DNA of 64,000 bases from an uncultured beta proteobacterium (GTDB taxonomy: Bacteria > Pseudomonadota > Gammaproteobacteria > Burkholderiales > JACQAP01): assembly GCA_963846655.1 (NCBI GenBank), contig CAWJWT010000002.1, positions 957,870 to 1,021,869 on the forward strand, given 5' to 3'. The translations under genes were made by a program, and so were the position numbers. The notes under the pieces are model-generated. The model was given only the letters and a program-made list of their open reading frames with translations, made no database searches and was not told where the DNA came from. Shown in pieces: positions 3,561 through 64,000 of the stretch. How positions within the stretch are numbered: position 1 is the stretch's first letter; every line of letters begins with the position of its first letter.

Positions 3561-4919
3561 TTGCGCACGCGGCATAATGTGGCCCGCGGCTTCCCCCTCC
3601 TCAAACTCTTGAATTACCAACAGCCCCTTGTATCCGTGCATTTATTGAGAAAAATCAAGCTTCTGGCCGTCAGCGTCTGGCGCGCCGCACGGGTCGCGCG
3701 CAAATGCCGTTTGCTCGGCATTCTGGTCGTAGCACTGTGTGCAGGGATGGCCGGGGCCGCGGAACAACGGCTCGCCGCGCAGGAAACCGTGATTGCGGGC
3801 GATTACTTCGGAGCGGGCGCGGATGCGTCCCCTGCCGCGCCCGTCGAGGGCGATGCGTTCATTGCGGCCGCGCAAGTGCAATTGCGCCACGCAGTGGTCG
3901 GGGATGCAGTGTTGGCGGGAGGGGGCGTGACGATTGCCGGGCGTGTGGGCGGCAACCTGTATGCAACCGGCGCCAGCATCAGCGTCGACGGACCGGTCGC
4001 GGGCAATGCGCGACTCGCCGGGGGCCAGGTCGAGATCACGCGCTCGGGGCAAGTATCCGGCAGGACCACGCTGGTCGGGGGAAAGGCCACCATCCTCGGC
4101 AAAGCCGGCCGTCAACTCACGATATTCAGCGAACATGTCATGCTCGATGGCGACGTTGCGGGCAATGTGACGATCGCGTCGCGCTCCCTGTCCATCGGAC
4201 CGAACGCGCGCGTATCCGGCATGCTGACGTACCGTGGCTCGCAGCCCGCGCACATCGACCCCGGGGCAGTCCTGGGCGGGGGCATCAATTACACGAGTTT
4301 CGATTTCGAGGACGAGACTTACCAGCCGGTCGCGCGCGTGATCGCCTGGATCGGCGTCATAGCATTCACCGTCGGGTTGTTTCTGATCGGCATGCTGGCC
4401 ATACTTTTTCTGCCGGCCTCTACGGCGCACGTGAGCCGGCTCGCGCGAGGCCGACCCCTGTCGTCGCTGGGTCTCGGACTTGTCGCGATCGTTTGCGTAC
4501 CGATTGCGGTCATTTTGCTGATGCTGACCATCGTGGGCATTCCTTTCGCCTTCATGCTGCTGCTGGTCTGGCCCATGATTCTCATTTTTGGTTATCTGGC
4601 GGGCGTCATGGCGGTCAGCGATGCGGTCGCCGGCCCCAACGCCGAGGCCAAAGGCCGCCGCATTTTCTTGCTCGCGATGGGCCTCGGGGTCATGCTGCTG
4701 TTCGCGCGCGTGCCTTTCGCCGGCTGGATCATCGGCATGTTGCTGCTGACCATGGGAGTAGGCGCGATGGCCCTCCATGCGATGGGCGCCACGGTGCCGG
4801 TCAGGGTCCGCAAGGAAAAGCGCAAGGCCGCCGGCGAAATCGCCGAACCGGCGGCACGCACGGAACCAACTTTTGATGAACGTCGAACAGGTGACGATGA
4901 ACAACACGATACGCGGTAA
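3561..4919 (+). CDS. membrane protein with bactofilin-like (polymer-forming, beta-helical G-x-V/I-x-G) repeats
   Basis: N-terminal half has repeated GDAVLAGGGVTIAGRVGGNLYATGASISVDGPVAGNARLAGGQVEI... The C-terminal half has about four hydrophobic helices. The true start is uncertain, possibly GTG ~3636. Confidence 0.6.
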   Translation: MRTRHNVARGFPLLKLLNYQQPLVSVHLLRKIKLLAVSVWRAARVARKCRLLGILVVALCAGMAGAAEQRLAAQETVIAGDYFGAGADASPAAPVEGDAFIAAAQVQLRHAVVGDAVLAGGGVTIAGRVGGNLYATGASISVDGPVAGNARLAGGQVEITRSGQVSGRTTLVGGKATILGKAGRQLTIFSEHVMLDGDVAGNVTIASRSLSIGPNARVSGMLTYRGSQPAHIDPGAVLGGGINYTSFDFEDETYQPVARVIAWIGVIAFTVGLFLIGMLAILFLPASTAHVSRLARGRPLSSLGLGLVAIVCVPIAVILLMLTIVGIPFAFMLLLVWPMILIFGYLAGVMAVSDAVAGPNAEAKGRRIFLLAMGLGVMLLFARVPFAGWIIGMLLLTMGVGAMALHAMGATVPVRVRKEKRKAAGEIAEPAARTEPTFDERRTGDDEQHDTR

Positions 4920-58311: not shown

Positions 58312-58928
58312 GCGACAAATATACCAGAATCTCGCGCGCCAAGCACCTCTCTGGCGAATACGAATCTGCTCCCCGGTCTCCTCAGGGAGAAAATTACGCT
58401 TCAACCCAAGACACTACTCGCTTTCCGCAGGTCGCCTACATACGGACTGCGGAACCGCTGTCTCGACGGCTCGACGGAGAGGCTCTCCGTCGCGGTCTTC
58501 CTGCACGGGAGACGGCGGCGCCAACTCCGCCAACCCTCGGGCCCAAATCGGGCGGTCCTTTCGGAAAGTTCTTGGCGACCTCGGCGGCTTCTGCCTGTTT
58601 GTGTCGCCTTGACACTGCCAGCCCCGCGCCCGAGAATGGAGCCAAGTTGCTGGACATGATCGCTCAGTGCCATGAGAGGATCTAGATCCCGGAATACTTC
58701 TCCTCCTGCAGGCGAGGCTGCCGCGCGCTGAGGTGCAGCAGATAGCCGGTACCTGCAGGTCAGTGGGTTGCTTTACGCGATGTGATGAGAGTGCAAGGCA
58801 ATGAACGAGACCCTACGTTCCCTTAGCCTTGGGGCAGTGCATCTCTTTGGAGTGGCTGTCCCAGGGTTCCTTTTGATTTTTCTGGCGGTCACGGGCCTGC
58901 TGGTCCCGGCCGGGCAGCTAAGCTGCCA

Positions 58929-59560: not shown

Positions 59561-59757
59561 GGGGCCAGGGCCGATCGGCCTTGGGCCGAGGATTGAGCGG
59601 GCCGACTTGCGGCGGACATGCCCTGCCCGGCCGGCGTACCGCCCGCCGGCCGCTTCCACCTGCCGCCGCGCCCGTCGCGAAACCTCCCTGCGCCCGCCCC
59701 GTAGACCCGATATCTGCAGCCGGCGCCCCGCCCCGGGGCGCCGGGCGATGAGTCGAG

Positions 59758-60748
59758 GTGATGGCGACGGTGACCAAGGAGCGTGCGACCGGCCGGGACG
59801 TGATCCTCGCCATCGGCGAGAACATGCGCAGCAGCCTCGAGCCGCTGGTGACCAAGGTCATCGCGCCCAGCCGCTACCAGGTCTATCTCCACGGCGACGA
59901 CTACGACCGCCTGCGCACCCTCTTCGGCGAGCTGGAGTCCGAGGCCCGGCGCCACCTCGATTCCGAGGAGCGCTGCGCGAAGTTCAATCGCAACAACCAG
60001 CCGGTGCTCAAGCGGCTGGTGCCGGTGATCCGCCGCCGGGGGGGTGCCGCGGCGCAGGCCGCCGCCGAGCCCGACCCCGCCGCCGCGGCCGCCGCGCCGC
60101 GCTACGTCAGCGCCGAGGGCTCCTGGACCGTGCGCTTCCAGGAGGACCCGGACGGCCGGCTGCAGCCGGGCGACATCCAGGTGGTGTCCGAGTTCGCCCA
60201 GCCGGTGGCGAAGGGGTACGGCGCCGGCTCGCTCACCCGGCGCATCTCGACCACCCGCCGCCAGGGGGCGCCGCTCAAGGTCGAGATGCGCACCGAGGAG
60301 GTCGCCGCCGGCTCCCAGGCGGCGGCGACGGCGCCGCGCCCGGCTCCCACCGTGCAGGTCGAGGCCGGCCCGGCGCCGGCGCCGGCGACGGCCTACGCCC
60401 GCATCGGCTTCCGCGACGACCGCGGGCCGCAAGACGTTCTGGGTGACCAAGGACGAAGTGGTGATCGGACGCGAGGCCGCCGACGTCTGGGTCGACCTGC
60501 GCCTCGAGACCTCGCTCGACGTCTCGCGCGAGCACGCCCGGCTGCAGCGCACGCCGGCCGGCACCTTTCGCCTCAAGGACCTGAGCAAGCTGGGGACGAC
60601 GGTCAACGGCGCGGCGGTGCCGTCAAGCCTCGAGTCGACCGGCGGCGGCGTGCGCGACCTCGATGTCTGGGTCGACCTGCCCGACCGCGTCCGCATCGGC
60701 CTCGCCGGCGTCGTCTTCCTCGACTTCGAGAGGCTGGCGGCGCCGTGA
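59758..60748 (+). pseudogene. FhaA-like protein (DUF3662-like N-terminus + C-terminal FHA domain), one frameshift ~60,425
   Basis: The N-terminal part is in ORF 59758... The FHA domain, in ORF 60044..60748, reads FWVTKDEVVIGREAADVWVDLRLETSLDVSREHARLQRTPAGTFRLKDLSKLGTTVNG. Confidence 0.7.
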
Positions 60749-60786
60749 GCGCGGGAGACGCGATCGCGGCTTTGCTGCGGCCCGCG
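60741..60786. repeat. direct repeat a (copy 1)
   Basis: cgccgtgagcgcgggagacgcgatcgcggctttgctgcggcccgcg matches 63,196-63,240. Confidence 0.8.
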
Positions 60787-60902
60787 ACGGCTGGCGACCT
60801 GCCGGCCCCGTTCCTCCTCGGCCCGAAGACCGCTGCCCGCGCTCGACGGTCTGCCACAATCGGCGACGAGGGCGAGTGGGTCCACGACCGGAGGCGAGCC
60901 TC

Positions 60903-62091: not shown

Positions 62092-62385
62092 TCACGCCGC
62101 CGATTCGAGGTTTTCCCGCAGGATCCGGGGATGGCGCGCAGCGATCCTCAGGAGGGCGACGGCAGATCCTTCCGGCTGGCGGCGGCCTTGCTCCCAGTTG
62201 CGGAGCGTGTGAACGCTGATACCCATGGCCTCGGCGAACCGGGTCTGCGTAAGCCCCACGAAACGACGTAGCGCCGCGATGTCTGCGCCGGACTCGAATT
62301 GTCCGAGCATCAGACGGTTGCGGAGGCGTGCAGGGATCGCACGGGCGAAGTCTCGATCGGTGAGCTCAGGGATGTCGTCGGTCAT
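62092..62385 (-). CDS. brnA: BrnA-like antitoxin (XRE-type HTH)
   Basis: 97 aa with LRRFVGLTQTRFAEAMGISVHTLRNWEQGRRQP. It has a 4-nt overlap with brnT. Confidence 0.75.
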   Translation of the reverse strand: MTDDIPELTDRDFARAIPARLRNRLMLGQFESGADIAALRRFVGLTQTRFAEAMGISVHTLRNWEQGRRQPEGSAVALLRIAARHPRILRENLESAA

Positions 62386-62672
62386 CGACTTTCGTCCATG
62401 TAGGAGTGGTAAAGAGCCTGCTCGCGTTGGTTCGCCCAACGAGCACCGATAATGCGCATCGTCTGTTCGTCGCGCGCGGTCCAGACGACGAGAACCAGAC
62501 CACGGACAATGGGGCCGATCGCGAGGAAGCGATCCTCGTCGAGGGAATGGTCCTCATCGAAGATTTCGAGATAGTCGTTGCCGGTGGCGAACAACTCCCG
62601 TGCTTCCTCGAACGAGATGCCATGCTTCTGCCGGTTTGCGGCATTCTTGGCCTGGTCCCATTCCACCCTCAC
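62382..62672 (-). CDS. brnT: BrnT-family (DUF497) toxin
   Basis: GTG start. VRVEWDQAKNAANRQKHGISFEEARELF...LVLVVWTARDEQTMRIIGARWANQRE. Confidence 0.75.
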   Translation of the reverse strand: MRVEWDQAKNAANRQKHGISFEEARELFATGNDYLEIFDEDHSLDEDRFLAIGPIVRGLVLVVWTARDEQTMRIIGARWANQREQALYHSYMDESR

Positions 62673-62767
62673 CCAGACGAGTTTGAACGGGGAGCTCTGC
62701 CAAGTCAATGGCTTAGTTCGCCATCCGCCAGTGCCCGGCCTTCGAGGTGGTGGAGCGCGGGCGAGGA

Positions 62768-62799: not shown

Positions 62800-62919
62800 G
62801 CCGACGTGCCCCGCGGCCTCGAAGCGAGCGTGGCCATCGCCTGACGTCGCCGGCGGAGTCGAGTCGACGACCTTTCAGCCGGCGGCGGCGCGCGCAGCCG
62901 CCGGCTGGCGGTCGCCGCA

Positions 62920-63225
62920 CCGTGATTGCGTCTCTCCGCCGCGGATTGTGTCTCTCGCCGGGGCGTTGCGTCTCCAGCCGAGGCAACACCGCTCGCCGCG
63001 ACGCAAACACGCCAATCTGGCGGGAAAACCCCTCAGCTTGTGTCTCATTGTGTCTCTCGCGCCGCTGGAGACACAACCAGCGGGGGAGAGACGCAATCCT
63101 CGGACGGGCGACGCAACCCGCTGCCGAGAGACGCAATGCGCCCGCGAGAGACGCGAAGTCCGCCGCGGGAGACGCCAGCCGGGCGTGGCGGAGGCCGCCG
63201 TGCTGCGGGAGACGCAATCCCGGCT
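62920..63225. repeat. convergent iteron-like arrays (~20-21-bp period, core GAGAGACGCAAT)
   Basis: Forward ATTG(C/T)GTCTC at 62,924, 62,944, 62,965, 63,038 and 63,047. Reverse (G)GAGAC(G/A)CAA at 63,067, 63,086, 63,108, 63,126, 63,146, 63,167 and 63,207. Central palindrome TTGTGTCTC-N11-GAGACACAA. Confidence 0.85.
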
Positions 63226-63240
63226 TTGCTGCGGCCCGCG
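63196..63240. repeat. direct repeat a (copy 2)
   Basis: cgccgtgctgcgggagacgcaatcccggctttgctgcggcccgcg. It contains the last iteron-like core. Confidence 0.8.
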
Positions 63241-63290
63241 GCGGCGGGGGAGGAACGAAGCTGCGTCCGCTCGGCTCAGCTTCCGGCGGC

Positions 63291-63429
63291 GCGACCCGCC
63301 GGACCCGGACTGTACGACCGGATCCGGCGGGACTTCAGGGAGGGCTCAATCCGGCTGTCGAACGGCGAGGATCCGGCCGATCTGGGCGAGCGCCGCCGGG
63401 GCCGGCCGGCGCAGCAGCTCGGCGAGCCC
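63291..63429. repeat. direct repeat c (copy 1, ~140 bp)
   Basis: gcgacccgccggacccggactgtacgaccggatccggcgggacttcagggagggctcaatccggctgtcg...gcgcagcagctcggcgagccc. It contains a 13-bp-stem hairpin and the 3' end of a minus-strand reading frame. Confidence 0.9.
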
Positions 63430-63748: not shown

Positions 63749-63888
63749 GGCGACCCGCCGGACCCGGACTGTACGACCGGATCCGGCGGGACTTCAGGGA
63801 GGGCTCAATCCGGCTGTCGGGCGGCGAGGATCCGGCCGATCTGGGCGAGCGCCCCGGGGCCGGCCGCGCGCAGCAGCTCGGCGAGCCC
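63749..63888. repeat. direct repeat c (copy 2)
   Basis: Near-identical to 63,291-63,429. Here it is the genuine 3' end plus terminator hairpin of the partial gene at the window edge. Confidence 0.9.
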
Positions 63889-64000
63889 CTGCGGCCCCCG
63901 CGCCAGGCCTTCGAGGTGGTGGAGCGCGGTCACGATCTCCGGCTGGTACCGCGAAAGCCACCCGCAGACCGTCGGCCCCTGCTCGCCGAAGGTGGCGAGG
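63805..64000 (-). CDS. partial CDS (C-terminal 65 aa), unknown function, runs off the window
   Basis: My own translation gives LATFGEQGPTVCGWLSRYQPEIVTALHHLEGLARGPQGLAELLRAAGPGALAQIGRILAARQPD*. Confidence 0.45.
   Translation of the reverse strand, partial: LATFGEQGPTVCGWLSRYQPEIVTALHHLEGLARGPQGLAELLRAAGPGALAQIGRILAARQPD

Follow-up and report, generated by a model that had tools for sequence, protein, structure and literature searches.

A DNA-binding protein that comes with its own phased array of sites is already known from several systems. The iterons of theta plasmids and P1 incA are repeats about two helical turns apart, which follow the gene of the binder and occur in both orientations; an iteron Rep has two winged-helix domains and is encoded beside an origin with a DNA-unwinding element (DUE) and DnaA boxes. 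The repeats of plasmid pSK41 are 20 bp, and Par of pSK1 has a coiled coil and acts on repeats beside its own gene. In this study, we analyzed a window of 64,000 nucleotides (the whole stretch, contig C2:957,870-1,021,869 of an uncultured beta proteobacterium), which carries a non-coding array of 12 genuine copies of the core GAGAC(G/A)CAA(T/C) at 62,926-63,217, mostly in 20-bp steps. Some homologous arrays elsewhere begin at the end of a gene for a small protein with a predicted winged helix, here named Z; beside the window array, only the last four codons of that gene are left. The array is probably the orphaned cis-acting site of Z, whose winged helix would bind the cores in a cooperative complex.

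Among the closest described systems, StbA combines a PadR-like helix-turn-helix (HTH) with a second domain needed for function, is autoregulatory, and has no dedicated nucleoside triphosphatase (NTPase); stbS of plasmid R388 consists of ten short direct repeats in two helix-phased sets (10.1101/2022.04.29.490116). TubR is a winged-helix centromere-binding protein, and tubC is made of short repeats in blocks on which a large ring or filament complex forms (PMC6009700). ParR binds the tandem phased repeats of parC (pSK41, R1) cooperatively in a superhelical complex (PMC5016525). Par of pSK1, a winged HTH protein, is described as partitioning by itself, in a system of one protein that lacks an NTPase partner (PMC11500499, citing Simpson 2003 and Chan 2022). 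The terminator-protein genes tus and rtp lie beside a cognate site that autoregulates them (PMC10331603).

The Z modules resemble each of these systems in part. Like StbA, Z has its best fold matches among PadR-type proteins, and its array is phased like stbS. However, stbS is plasmid-borne and lies in the upstream promoter with an 11-bp period, whereas the Z arrays are chromosomal and multi-copy and lie 3' of the gene with a 20-21-bp period in two opposed blocks; no sequence or fold match of Z to StbA was found, and the winged helix of Z is C-terminal. TubR is found among the fold matches of Z, but tubC is always upstream of tubR and accompanied by tubZ, and no tubulin-like, actin-like, or ParA gene was found near Z. 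ParR differs in being a ribbon-helix-helix (RHH) protein, with parC upstream, parM present, and a plasmid location. Par of pSK1 differs in its N-terminal MerR-type HTH, its upstream repeats, and its staphylococcal plasmid; neither sequence nor fold searches with Z retrieved it. RTP-Ter and Tus-Ter share with Z the opposed polar sites and the adjacent protein gene, and RTP is a small winged-helix dimer. In contrast to the 12-20 sites of Z arrays, Ter sites are single or paired, and the one protein gene per genome is found close to the terminus; Z, by comparison, is multi-copy, with its genes dispersed. The two-domain Rep, DUE, and DnaA boxes of iteron systems were not seen here; for DnaA-box-like words, this rests on reading the sequence and not on a formal scan. 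What is new in the Z modules is that they are chromosomal and multi-copy, lack an NTPase, carry the array 3' of the gene, and have paralogue-specific cores.

The array and its conservation

The original prediction, made from the letters of the window alone, had described about 12 core copies in opposed groups of five and seven, and comparison with homologues bore this out. The conserved element is laid out as follows.

62,813-63,291, unstranded: whole conserved non-coding element (two flanking hairpins, array, and Z-gene vestige), delimited by blastn and alignments with homologues
62,876-62,907, unstranded: hairpin 1, a GC-rich inverted repeat at the array end far from Z (16+16 nt arms, 94% complementary)
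62,926-62,974, minus strand: three cores TTGCGTCTC, TTGTGTCTC, TTGCGTCTC, 20 bp apart (core scan)
62,975-63,037, unstranded: central spacer with conserved GCCAATCTGGCGGGAAAACCCC (spacer identity 70-92%)
63,038-63,056, minus strand: two cores TTGTGTCTCA TTGTGTCTCT, 10 bp apart (Tandem Repeats Finder (TRF) and core scan)
63,068-63,217, plus strand: seven cores, with one degenerate unit between the last two (core scan)
63,257-63,283, unstranded: hairpin 2 (GAAGCTG...CAGCTTC), stem conserved in alignments
63,276-63,290, minus strand: what is left of the Z gene, codons A-A-G-S in frame and TGA (comparison with intact Z ends)
60,741-60,797, plus strand: 57-bp fragment, 86% identical to the Z-proximal last array unit at 63,196-63,251 (repeat search)

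The five minus-strand cores lie at 62926, 62946, 62966, 63038, and 63048, and the seven plus-strand cores at 63068, 63088, 63108, 63128, 63148, 63169, and 63209. A scan of the 64-kb window for GAGACGCAA with at most one mismatch returned 19 matches, which is the chance total (20 ± 4.4 in shuffles), and 13 of the 19 fell inside 62,926-63,217. The Poisson probability of at least 13 matches in 300 bp is ~3e-24. In the 4.39-Mb assembly, a degenerate core scan gave 609 scattered matches, and the single cluster of at least three was this array. The orientations of the 13 matches run three minus, one plus, and two minus up to the center and seven plus beyond it, with spacings of 20, 20, 32, 40, 10, 20, 20, 20, 20, 20, 21, and 40. 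The lone plus match, at 62,998, is a chance hit because the homologues all read GCGAGGAAAA there; hence, 12 true sites remain.

TRF found a period of 20 on each side of the array, and the inverted-repeat finder paired both blocks. All sites share one 10-bp register (phase coherence 0.81 at periods 10.0 and 20.1). The palindrome with an N11 spacer that had been placed at the meeting point of the blocks is TTGTGTCTC-N11-GAGACACAA at 63,048-63,076, one base off the coordinates first given, and the central 60 bp of the array are only mildly less GC-rich. Whether the blocks are called convergent or divergent is set solely by the strand chosen as the forward strand of the core. The extra core reported near 60,751-60,765 is also real (60,755-60,763) and lies inside the 57-bp fragment listed above, which probably remains from a second copy or marks a recombination joint.

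A strict three-unit pattern that included the inversion retrieved L162, L164, and L166, contigs of one soil metagenome that align across the whole element. Whole-array homologues were found in L162, L164/L194, L166, L197, and L199, all Thermoanaerobaculia-like contigs, and compare with the window as follows.

L162: array 93% identical; neighbor gene Y, 95%
L166: array 88.8% identical over 484 bp; neighbor gene Y, 68% at the nucleotide level (55% amino acid)
L164: array 82.5% identical over 469 bp; flanks unrelated
L199: array 86% identical
L197: array 71% identical over the best 262-bp blastn segment

The array is better conserved than the adjoining protein gene, as the L166 values of 88.8% and 68% nucleotide identity show. 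Within the array, variation is concentrated outside the cores. In the alignment of homologues, 7 of 117 core columns were variable versus 49 of 180 spacer columns (p=1.8e-6); between the window and L197, the cores were 83% identical and the spacers 56% (p=1.2e-6). L197 retains the architecture, namely both flanking hairpins, the three sites, the central GCCAATCTGGCGGGAAAA box, and the long block, and has gained one whole ~20-bp unit with the phase preserved. Of its core pair spaced by 10 bp, the second is conserved and the first degenerate. Hairpin 1 is kept in the five homologues that reach that end (81-94% identity to the window), and the three-core block is retained in the five homologues that cover it, including L197; L199 ends before it. 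Hairpin 2 overlaps the Z stop codon in Z-bearing loci. Since the cores vary less than the spacers and the phase is kept, selection acts on the cores and their spacing, which is the signature expected of a row of recognition sites. The predicted array for cooperative multi-site binding gains support from the core-specific conservation, from the phase kept when a unit was gained, and from the lack of coding or RNA signal.

The array is non-coding, as had been proposed. A protein-coding tandem repeat was rejected: the variable sites of four homologues are distributed 34/27/37 by phase (p=0.45) with no 3-base substitution periodicity, a 20-bp period is not divisible by 3, the JGI annotation of two contigs has no gene across the array, and a search with the spurious open reading frame (ORF) translated across the array gave no matches. 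The promoter and terminator scan found no sigma-70-like promoter and no intrinsic terminator at the array, and tRNA searches were empty. The array was not found in 24 genomes of the same genus, in 400 genomes sampled from the host class (>250 families), or in 300 genomes of the class of genome G442.

The Z family and the loss of Z from the window lineage

In L164, the right edge of the array abuts the stop codon of a 175-aa ORF, the first Z gene. Z proteins (~150-190 aa) form a rare unnamed family of Thermoanaerobaculia-like Acidobacteriota; a word-index search of 5.8 billion proteins returned only ten Z clusters, one of which carries an annotation to a Thermoanaerobaculia metagenome-assembled genome. 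In all seven Z lineages looked up (six orthologues of 34-100% identity and the distant P0160), a phased array with GAGAC cores begins just 3' of the stop codon.

P0117: L194-196
P0118, 76% identical: L199
P0121, 69%: L197/198, on a 1.12-Mb contig
P0122, 52%: L200/201
P0123, 40%: L202, period 21, ~20 sites
P0126, 34%: L203
P0160, distant: L204

The motif GAGACRC occurs at 0.41 per kb upstream of Z versus 10-19 per ~0.4-0.7 kb in the four best arrays, those of L194, L197, L198, and L202. The opposed polarity of the blocks is conserved in L194, L197, L200, and L202; seen from Z, L202 has the blocks in the opposite order to L194. The window array is homologous in sequence to these Z-following arrays (L164/L194, L199, L197), and it shows the geometry by which we operationally define such modules: at least eight cores, a 20-21-bp period, two opposed blocks, and cores better conserved than spacers. 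In L202, three cores at 3,959-4,012, two of them arranged as the inverted pair GAGACGC-N7-GTGTCTC, extend over the beginning of the Z gene and plausibly form a candidate autoregulatory operator.

In the AlphaFold model of Z, a long helix at the N-terminus (residues 2-40) is followed by a disordered Pro/Ala linker and then by a C-terminal winged helix that is predicted with confidence (residues 106-168, predicted local distance difference test score ~90). Its fold neighbors by Foldseek and profiles are PadR, MarR, Fur, TubR (Foldseek rank 6), and RTP (rank 12); one Z member has a weak Pfam match to RTP (E=0.019). Pfam, PHROGs, PADLOC, and NCBIfam gave no name for Z, and no description of the family was found in the protein libraries or by literature search; a literature search with the core words returned primers and similar only. 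No Z relative was found in the viral contigs searched. L194 and L197 share chromosomal synteny around Z and its array (CarD, fn3/PPC). The genes upstream of Z vary (DUF3592, AAA_14/DUF4143, AAA_21, HNH, GGDEF), and Z frequently closes operons of varied content.

Several Z genes come after or lie beside defense-type genes: an AAA_14/DUF4143 ATPase (L197 3,583-4,986), an AAA_21/AAA_15 ATPase beside an MmeI-type methyltransferase (L200 3,361-3,939), an HNH nuclease (L199 949-1,377), and a TIR-STAND-WD40 protein (L221 7,219-11,367). This proximity may be mere co-location in variable regions.

Intact Z proteins end in PPAGS (L197) or PPTES (L194) before the stop codon. The corresponding remnants at the array edge, in frame and followed by a stop, are RKAEPPAGS in L166, PPAGS in L162, and AAGS in the window. 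As the last codons of Z are kept in frame, the arrays of the window, L162, and L166 derive from Z-linked modules by deletion of Z. The original prediction had found no binding protein in the window, and no Z relative was found anywhere in the 4.39-Mb assembly. Since only AAGS and the stop codon are left and the assembly has no Z, the window copy is an orphan derivative rather than a complete module: no intact Z gene ends at its array, and the unrelated gene Y now faces it. Either the window array is a relic in decay, or a Z encoded elsewhere in the donor genome serves it in trans.

From ~39 kb onward, the window has 66-75% GC versus 62% for the genome, and the next ~13 kb of contig C2 are mostly at 64-80%, with a dip to 53-63% at 65-68 kb. 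The high-GC segment is 80-95% identical to Thermoanaerobaculia-like metagenome contigs, while its sequences are missing from the sampled host class. It is probably foreign to the rest of the genome and would stem from a recent horizontal transfer or from a chimeric join in the assembly.

A full profile search extended the family to 351 clusters at 50% identity. In the order containing G442, 25 of 201 species genomes carry Z, with 1-9 copies each. The copies are scattered on complete chromosomes, nine of them on the 7.66-Mb complete chromosome of G802, where the chromosomal neighbors of four copies are an aminotransferase, a PAS kinase, TrmO, a GGDEF protein, and a TIR-STAND protein. The arrays of these more distant paralogues lie downstream of the gene, with 21-bp spacing or multiples of it and with different cores.

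GTGATGC(C) core: L207-L209, with 13 copies in L208
GTGACGC core: L206, L210, L213
GGCGAA core: L217, L218
GAGACAC core: L205
AGGGGCG core: L221

Phased chains of at least four were found downstream of Z at 14 of 21 loci and upstream at 1 of 21 (Fisher p=5e-5); the statistic uses exact 6-mers and is conservative, and no chain longer than 3 arose in shuffled sequences. The presumed recognition helix reads S-R-A-S/T in proteins with GAGAC cores and D-R-G-S in those with GTGA(C/T)GC cores, a suggestive co-variation of helix and motif.

Proposed function and alternative explanations

From the sequence comparisons, we infer that Z binds the cores and does so cooperatively. Each of the 12 cores would be the recognition site for one Z winged-helix domain. 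With two helical turns from core to core, consecutive Z proteins would sit along nearly one face of the duplex, and their N-terminal helices could join neighbors into a large cooperative complex across the two opposed blocks. In the window lineage, the Z gene was deleted to its last four codons, and the unrelated gene Y now abuts the array.

Several observations weigh against this interpretation. The linkage to Z and the co-variation are correlative evidence, and the correlation of helix and motif comes from ~20 loci that are phylogenetically non-independent. The fold matches of Z are of the generic winged-helix kind, all with E >0.009. By the exact-word test, L206, L212, L215, and L216 have weak arrays or none. 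Finally, the arrays of the window, L162, and L166 lack Z and are nevertheless 89-93% identical; use in trans or a recent origin fits this identity, and another factor could be reading the array.

As for the role of such a complex, our leading guess, by analogy with the systems above, is a centromere-like or self-regulating docking platform without a dedicated NTPase. We rank this platform first and a polar barrier second, and place a plasmid-origin remnant, transposon ends, RNA, and neutral repeats low. In a wider reading, which we offer tentatively, the modules of Z and array may represent an undescribed class of stand-alone chromosomal protein-DNA landmarks in Acidobacteriota, that is, NTPase-free nucleoprotein bodies that position, insulate, or block DNA. 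With similar reserve, we suggest that each of up to nine paralogues per genome may have 8-20 phased sites in a code of its own, with orphan arrays as extra platforms served in trans.

If Z reads the arrays, the family would be a compact, naturally diversified set of orthogonal protein/site pairs, with similar recognition helices, differing 7-bp cores, a spacing fixed at two turns, and a location in chromosomes rather than on plasmids. Candidate uses of up to nine private arrays are chromosome organization, operon insulation, titration-type regulation, and a fork or polymerase block. The NTPase-independent centromere-like systems, a small group (StbA, pSK1 Par), would also reach into a poorly studied soil phylum. 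For the window itself, less follows: its array is real, but an orphaned relic within a probably foreign segment.

The second-ranked role, in which Z-loaded opposed blocks act as a roadblock to replication forks or transcription in the manner of RTP/Ter or Tus/Ter, is unlikely. It would suit the conserved opposed polarity in L194, L197, L200, and L202, the frequent position of Z at the end of operons, and the resemblance of Z to RTP as a small winged-helix protein with a long helix (Foldseek rank 12, Pfam E=0.019); tus and rtp likewise adjoin an autoregulating cognate site (PMC10331603). However, Z and its arrays are multi-copy (1-9 per genome, nine on G802) and spread over complete chromosomes rather than confined to one terminus, which speaks against a fork trap. 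In addition, the block order relative to Z is reversed between L202 and L194, the similarity of Z to RTP is no better than that to other winged-helix proteins, and the local GC skew at four loci was uninformative.

The cumulative GC skew of contig C2 shows a steady rise over ~900 kb and a plateau at ~900-1,040 kb, and the window sits near this turning point of the host contig, possibly in the terminus region. The idea of a terminus element was dropped, as the segment looks foreign, Z is multi-copy, and local skew around the four loci was uninformative. An oriC, dif, or other essential chromosomal site was rejected, since syntenic loci, L167 among them, have no array.

The original prediction had favored a replication or partition remnant of an integrated plasmid or integrative and conjugative element (ICE), and a remnant of a plasmid, phage, or ICE origin (iterons) or of a partition centromere is now improbable. 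The phased repeats of about two turns, the two blocks, and the less GC-rich center do resemble iteron origins and split centromeres, for instance the blocks of tubC (PMC6009700) and the two sets of five repeats of stbS (10.1101/2022.04.29.490116), and the region is a mosaic of toxin-antitoxin (TA) modules. Against such an origin, no rep, par (parA/parM/tubZ), tra, relaxase, integrase, or transposase gene was found beside the array in the window or at the six homologous loci, and none of rep, parA/parM/tubZ, relaxase, integrase, or transposase at four paralogous ones; blastn of the array gave no match in 72,556 plasmids or 50,697 phages; and no Z was found in viral contigs. Homologous and paralogous modules lie in ordinary chromosomal neighborhoods, as the CarD and fn3/PPC synteny of L194/L197 and the scatter of up to nine Z copies on one complete chromosome illustrate. 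An iteron origin is disfavored in that no initiator (rep) gene adjoins the array here or at the homologous loci (Pfam, all neighbors). A partition centromere in the usual sense is disfavored as well: its geometry is present and a DNA-binding gene, with putative binding, adjoins the array in homologues but not in the window, whereas the cassette has no partner NTPase (ParA, ParM, TubZ) and is not on a plasmid, phage, or mobile replicon.

A structured or sponge RNA, or a long DNA/RNA hairpin that functions through base pairing or RNA-binding motifs, is very unlikely. The strand folds better than shuffles (z = -5.9) and the flanking hairpins are conserved; the strong fold energy arises because the cores are inverted. 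Rfam 15 gave no credible match to any family (best, a plant miRNA, E=0.16), the RNAalifold covariation term was +0.25 with compensated changes in 5 of 153 pairs, and opposed spacers do not co-vary. The motifs are also found both ways round, an arrangement that is tolerable for a DNA-binding protein and not for an RNA motif.

Hardly more credible is a neutral expansion of tandem repeats or of a REP-like hairpin (REP, repetitive extragenic palindrome) with no sequence-specific function, which we hold to be even less probable than RNA. It draws on unrelated 20-21-bp arrays with the same 9-mer in other phyla, some of them half-hairpin expansions of GTAGAGACGCAA...TTGCGTCTCTAC. However, the arrays of other phyla have no common flanking family and no Z nearby, and the window array is under core-specific purifying selection, keeps its architecture at 71-93% identity, and is conserved above its adjoining gene (88.8% versus 68% nucleotide identity to L166). 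A REP or bacterial interspersed mosaic element, a short GTAG-headed palindrome dispersed in many copies, was rejected because the genome holds no second cluster.

Least probable of all are the ends of a transposon or miniature inverted-repeat element that carries several subterminal binding sites for the transposase, as Tn7 and Mu do, a possibility that the original prediction had raised: the outermost cores do form terminal inverted repeats of 11-15 bp, CCGnGATTGCGTCTC, and the element has differing flanks in L162, L164, and L166, but it is single-copy in the genome with no target-site duplication seen on reading the flanks, its left boundary varies by copy (62,813, 62,824, or ~62,875), conservation reaches 50-70 bp past the outer cores, the right edge is accounted for by the Z-gene vestige, and no transposase was found near any locus.

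Neighboring genes and unrelated arrays

As had been recognized, the array lies in a mosaic of TA modules; these are BrnT/BrnA-like, UPF0175, and a VapB remnant. Its nearest neighbors in the window are the following.

63,291-63,429, unstranded: 139-bp duplicate of 63,750-63,888 (3' end of gene Y and its hairpin), 97% identity
63,335-63,700, minus strand: remnant of a VapB-like RHH antitoxin, whose insertion separates the array from gene Y (weak RHH_1 match; absent in L162)
63,805-64,000, minus strand: gene Y, ~182 aa, running off the window; hypothetical Thermoanaerobaculia family, no Pfam match
62,092-62,678, minus strand: brnT (62,382-62,678; Pfam BrnT_toxin, 4.9e-22) and a brnA-like HTH gene (62,092-62,439; Pfam MqsA_antitoxin/HTH_31), transcribed away from the array

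The 139-bp duplication brackets the inserted vapB remnant; in L162, the array directly abuts gene Y with no such insert. The left neighbor differs in L162, L164, and L166, and brnT/brnA is thus a variable neighbor outside the module. The BrnA-like and RHH proteins had been put forward as possible binders; since both vary among homologous loci, they are not the partners. Gene Y was also rejected as the binder, as closer Y orthologues (84%, 77%, and 75%) have no array and Y is not homologous to Z (hhalign probability 0.4%). Y belongs to a multi-copy hypothetical family of the same bacteria (>116 clusters), with eight matches (~5-6 gene copies) in one Acidobacteriota genome. The DNA 3' of Y is a TA hotspot across strains (L167, L170, L171), with RHH and HTH, DUF433, and PIN and RHH genes. 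As the closer Y orthologues carry TA modules there instead of the array, the site is a variable hotspot.

Two duplications were also noted. A 1.09-kb stretch encoding an FhaA-like N-terminus and FHA domain occurs twice, at 59,665-60,735 and 67,954-69,026 (L001 7,954-9,026), with 84% identity. A second, short pair lies at 58,546-58,703 and 64,473-64,687. The duplication has the look of segmental paralogy, or of versions from two strains that the assembler put together.

A loose two-unit scan of genome and viral contigs gave >150 loci, and the expected number of chance matches was of the same order. The loci with arrays had no common flanking protein family and no Z nearby and were dropped as unrelated. 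Among them, half-hairpin arrays of Bacteroidota and Chloroflexota (L022 1,482-1,590; L104 2,595-2,770; L043 3,958-4,020; L127 3,343-3,460; L110 906-990) consist of 3-8 tandem copies of the left half, with a 20-21-bp period, that precede the palindrome GTAGAGACGCAA-N4-TTGCGTCTCTAC. They look like slippage or template-switch expansions of a REP-like hairpin, unrelated to the window array. In Bacillus timonensis, L095 1,833-2,457 holds ~23 tandem ATTTGCGTCTCC units with a strict 20-bp period. In an IMG/VR contig of 66% GC, L159 1,018-1,170 holds 6-7 palindromes GCGTCTC-N4-GAGACGCAAGA with a period of ~27 bp; they are flanked by an unnamed gene whose C-terminus is winged-helix-like and by a tyrosine integrase. 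The 9-mer it shares with the window is probably a coincidence, and the L159 array is possibly a phage origin or an attP arm array.

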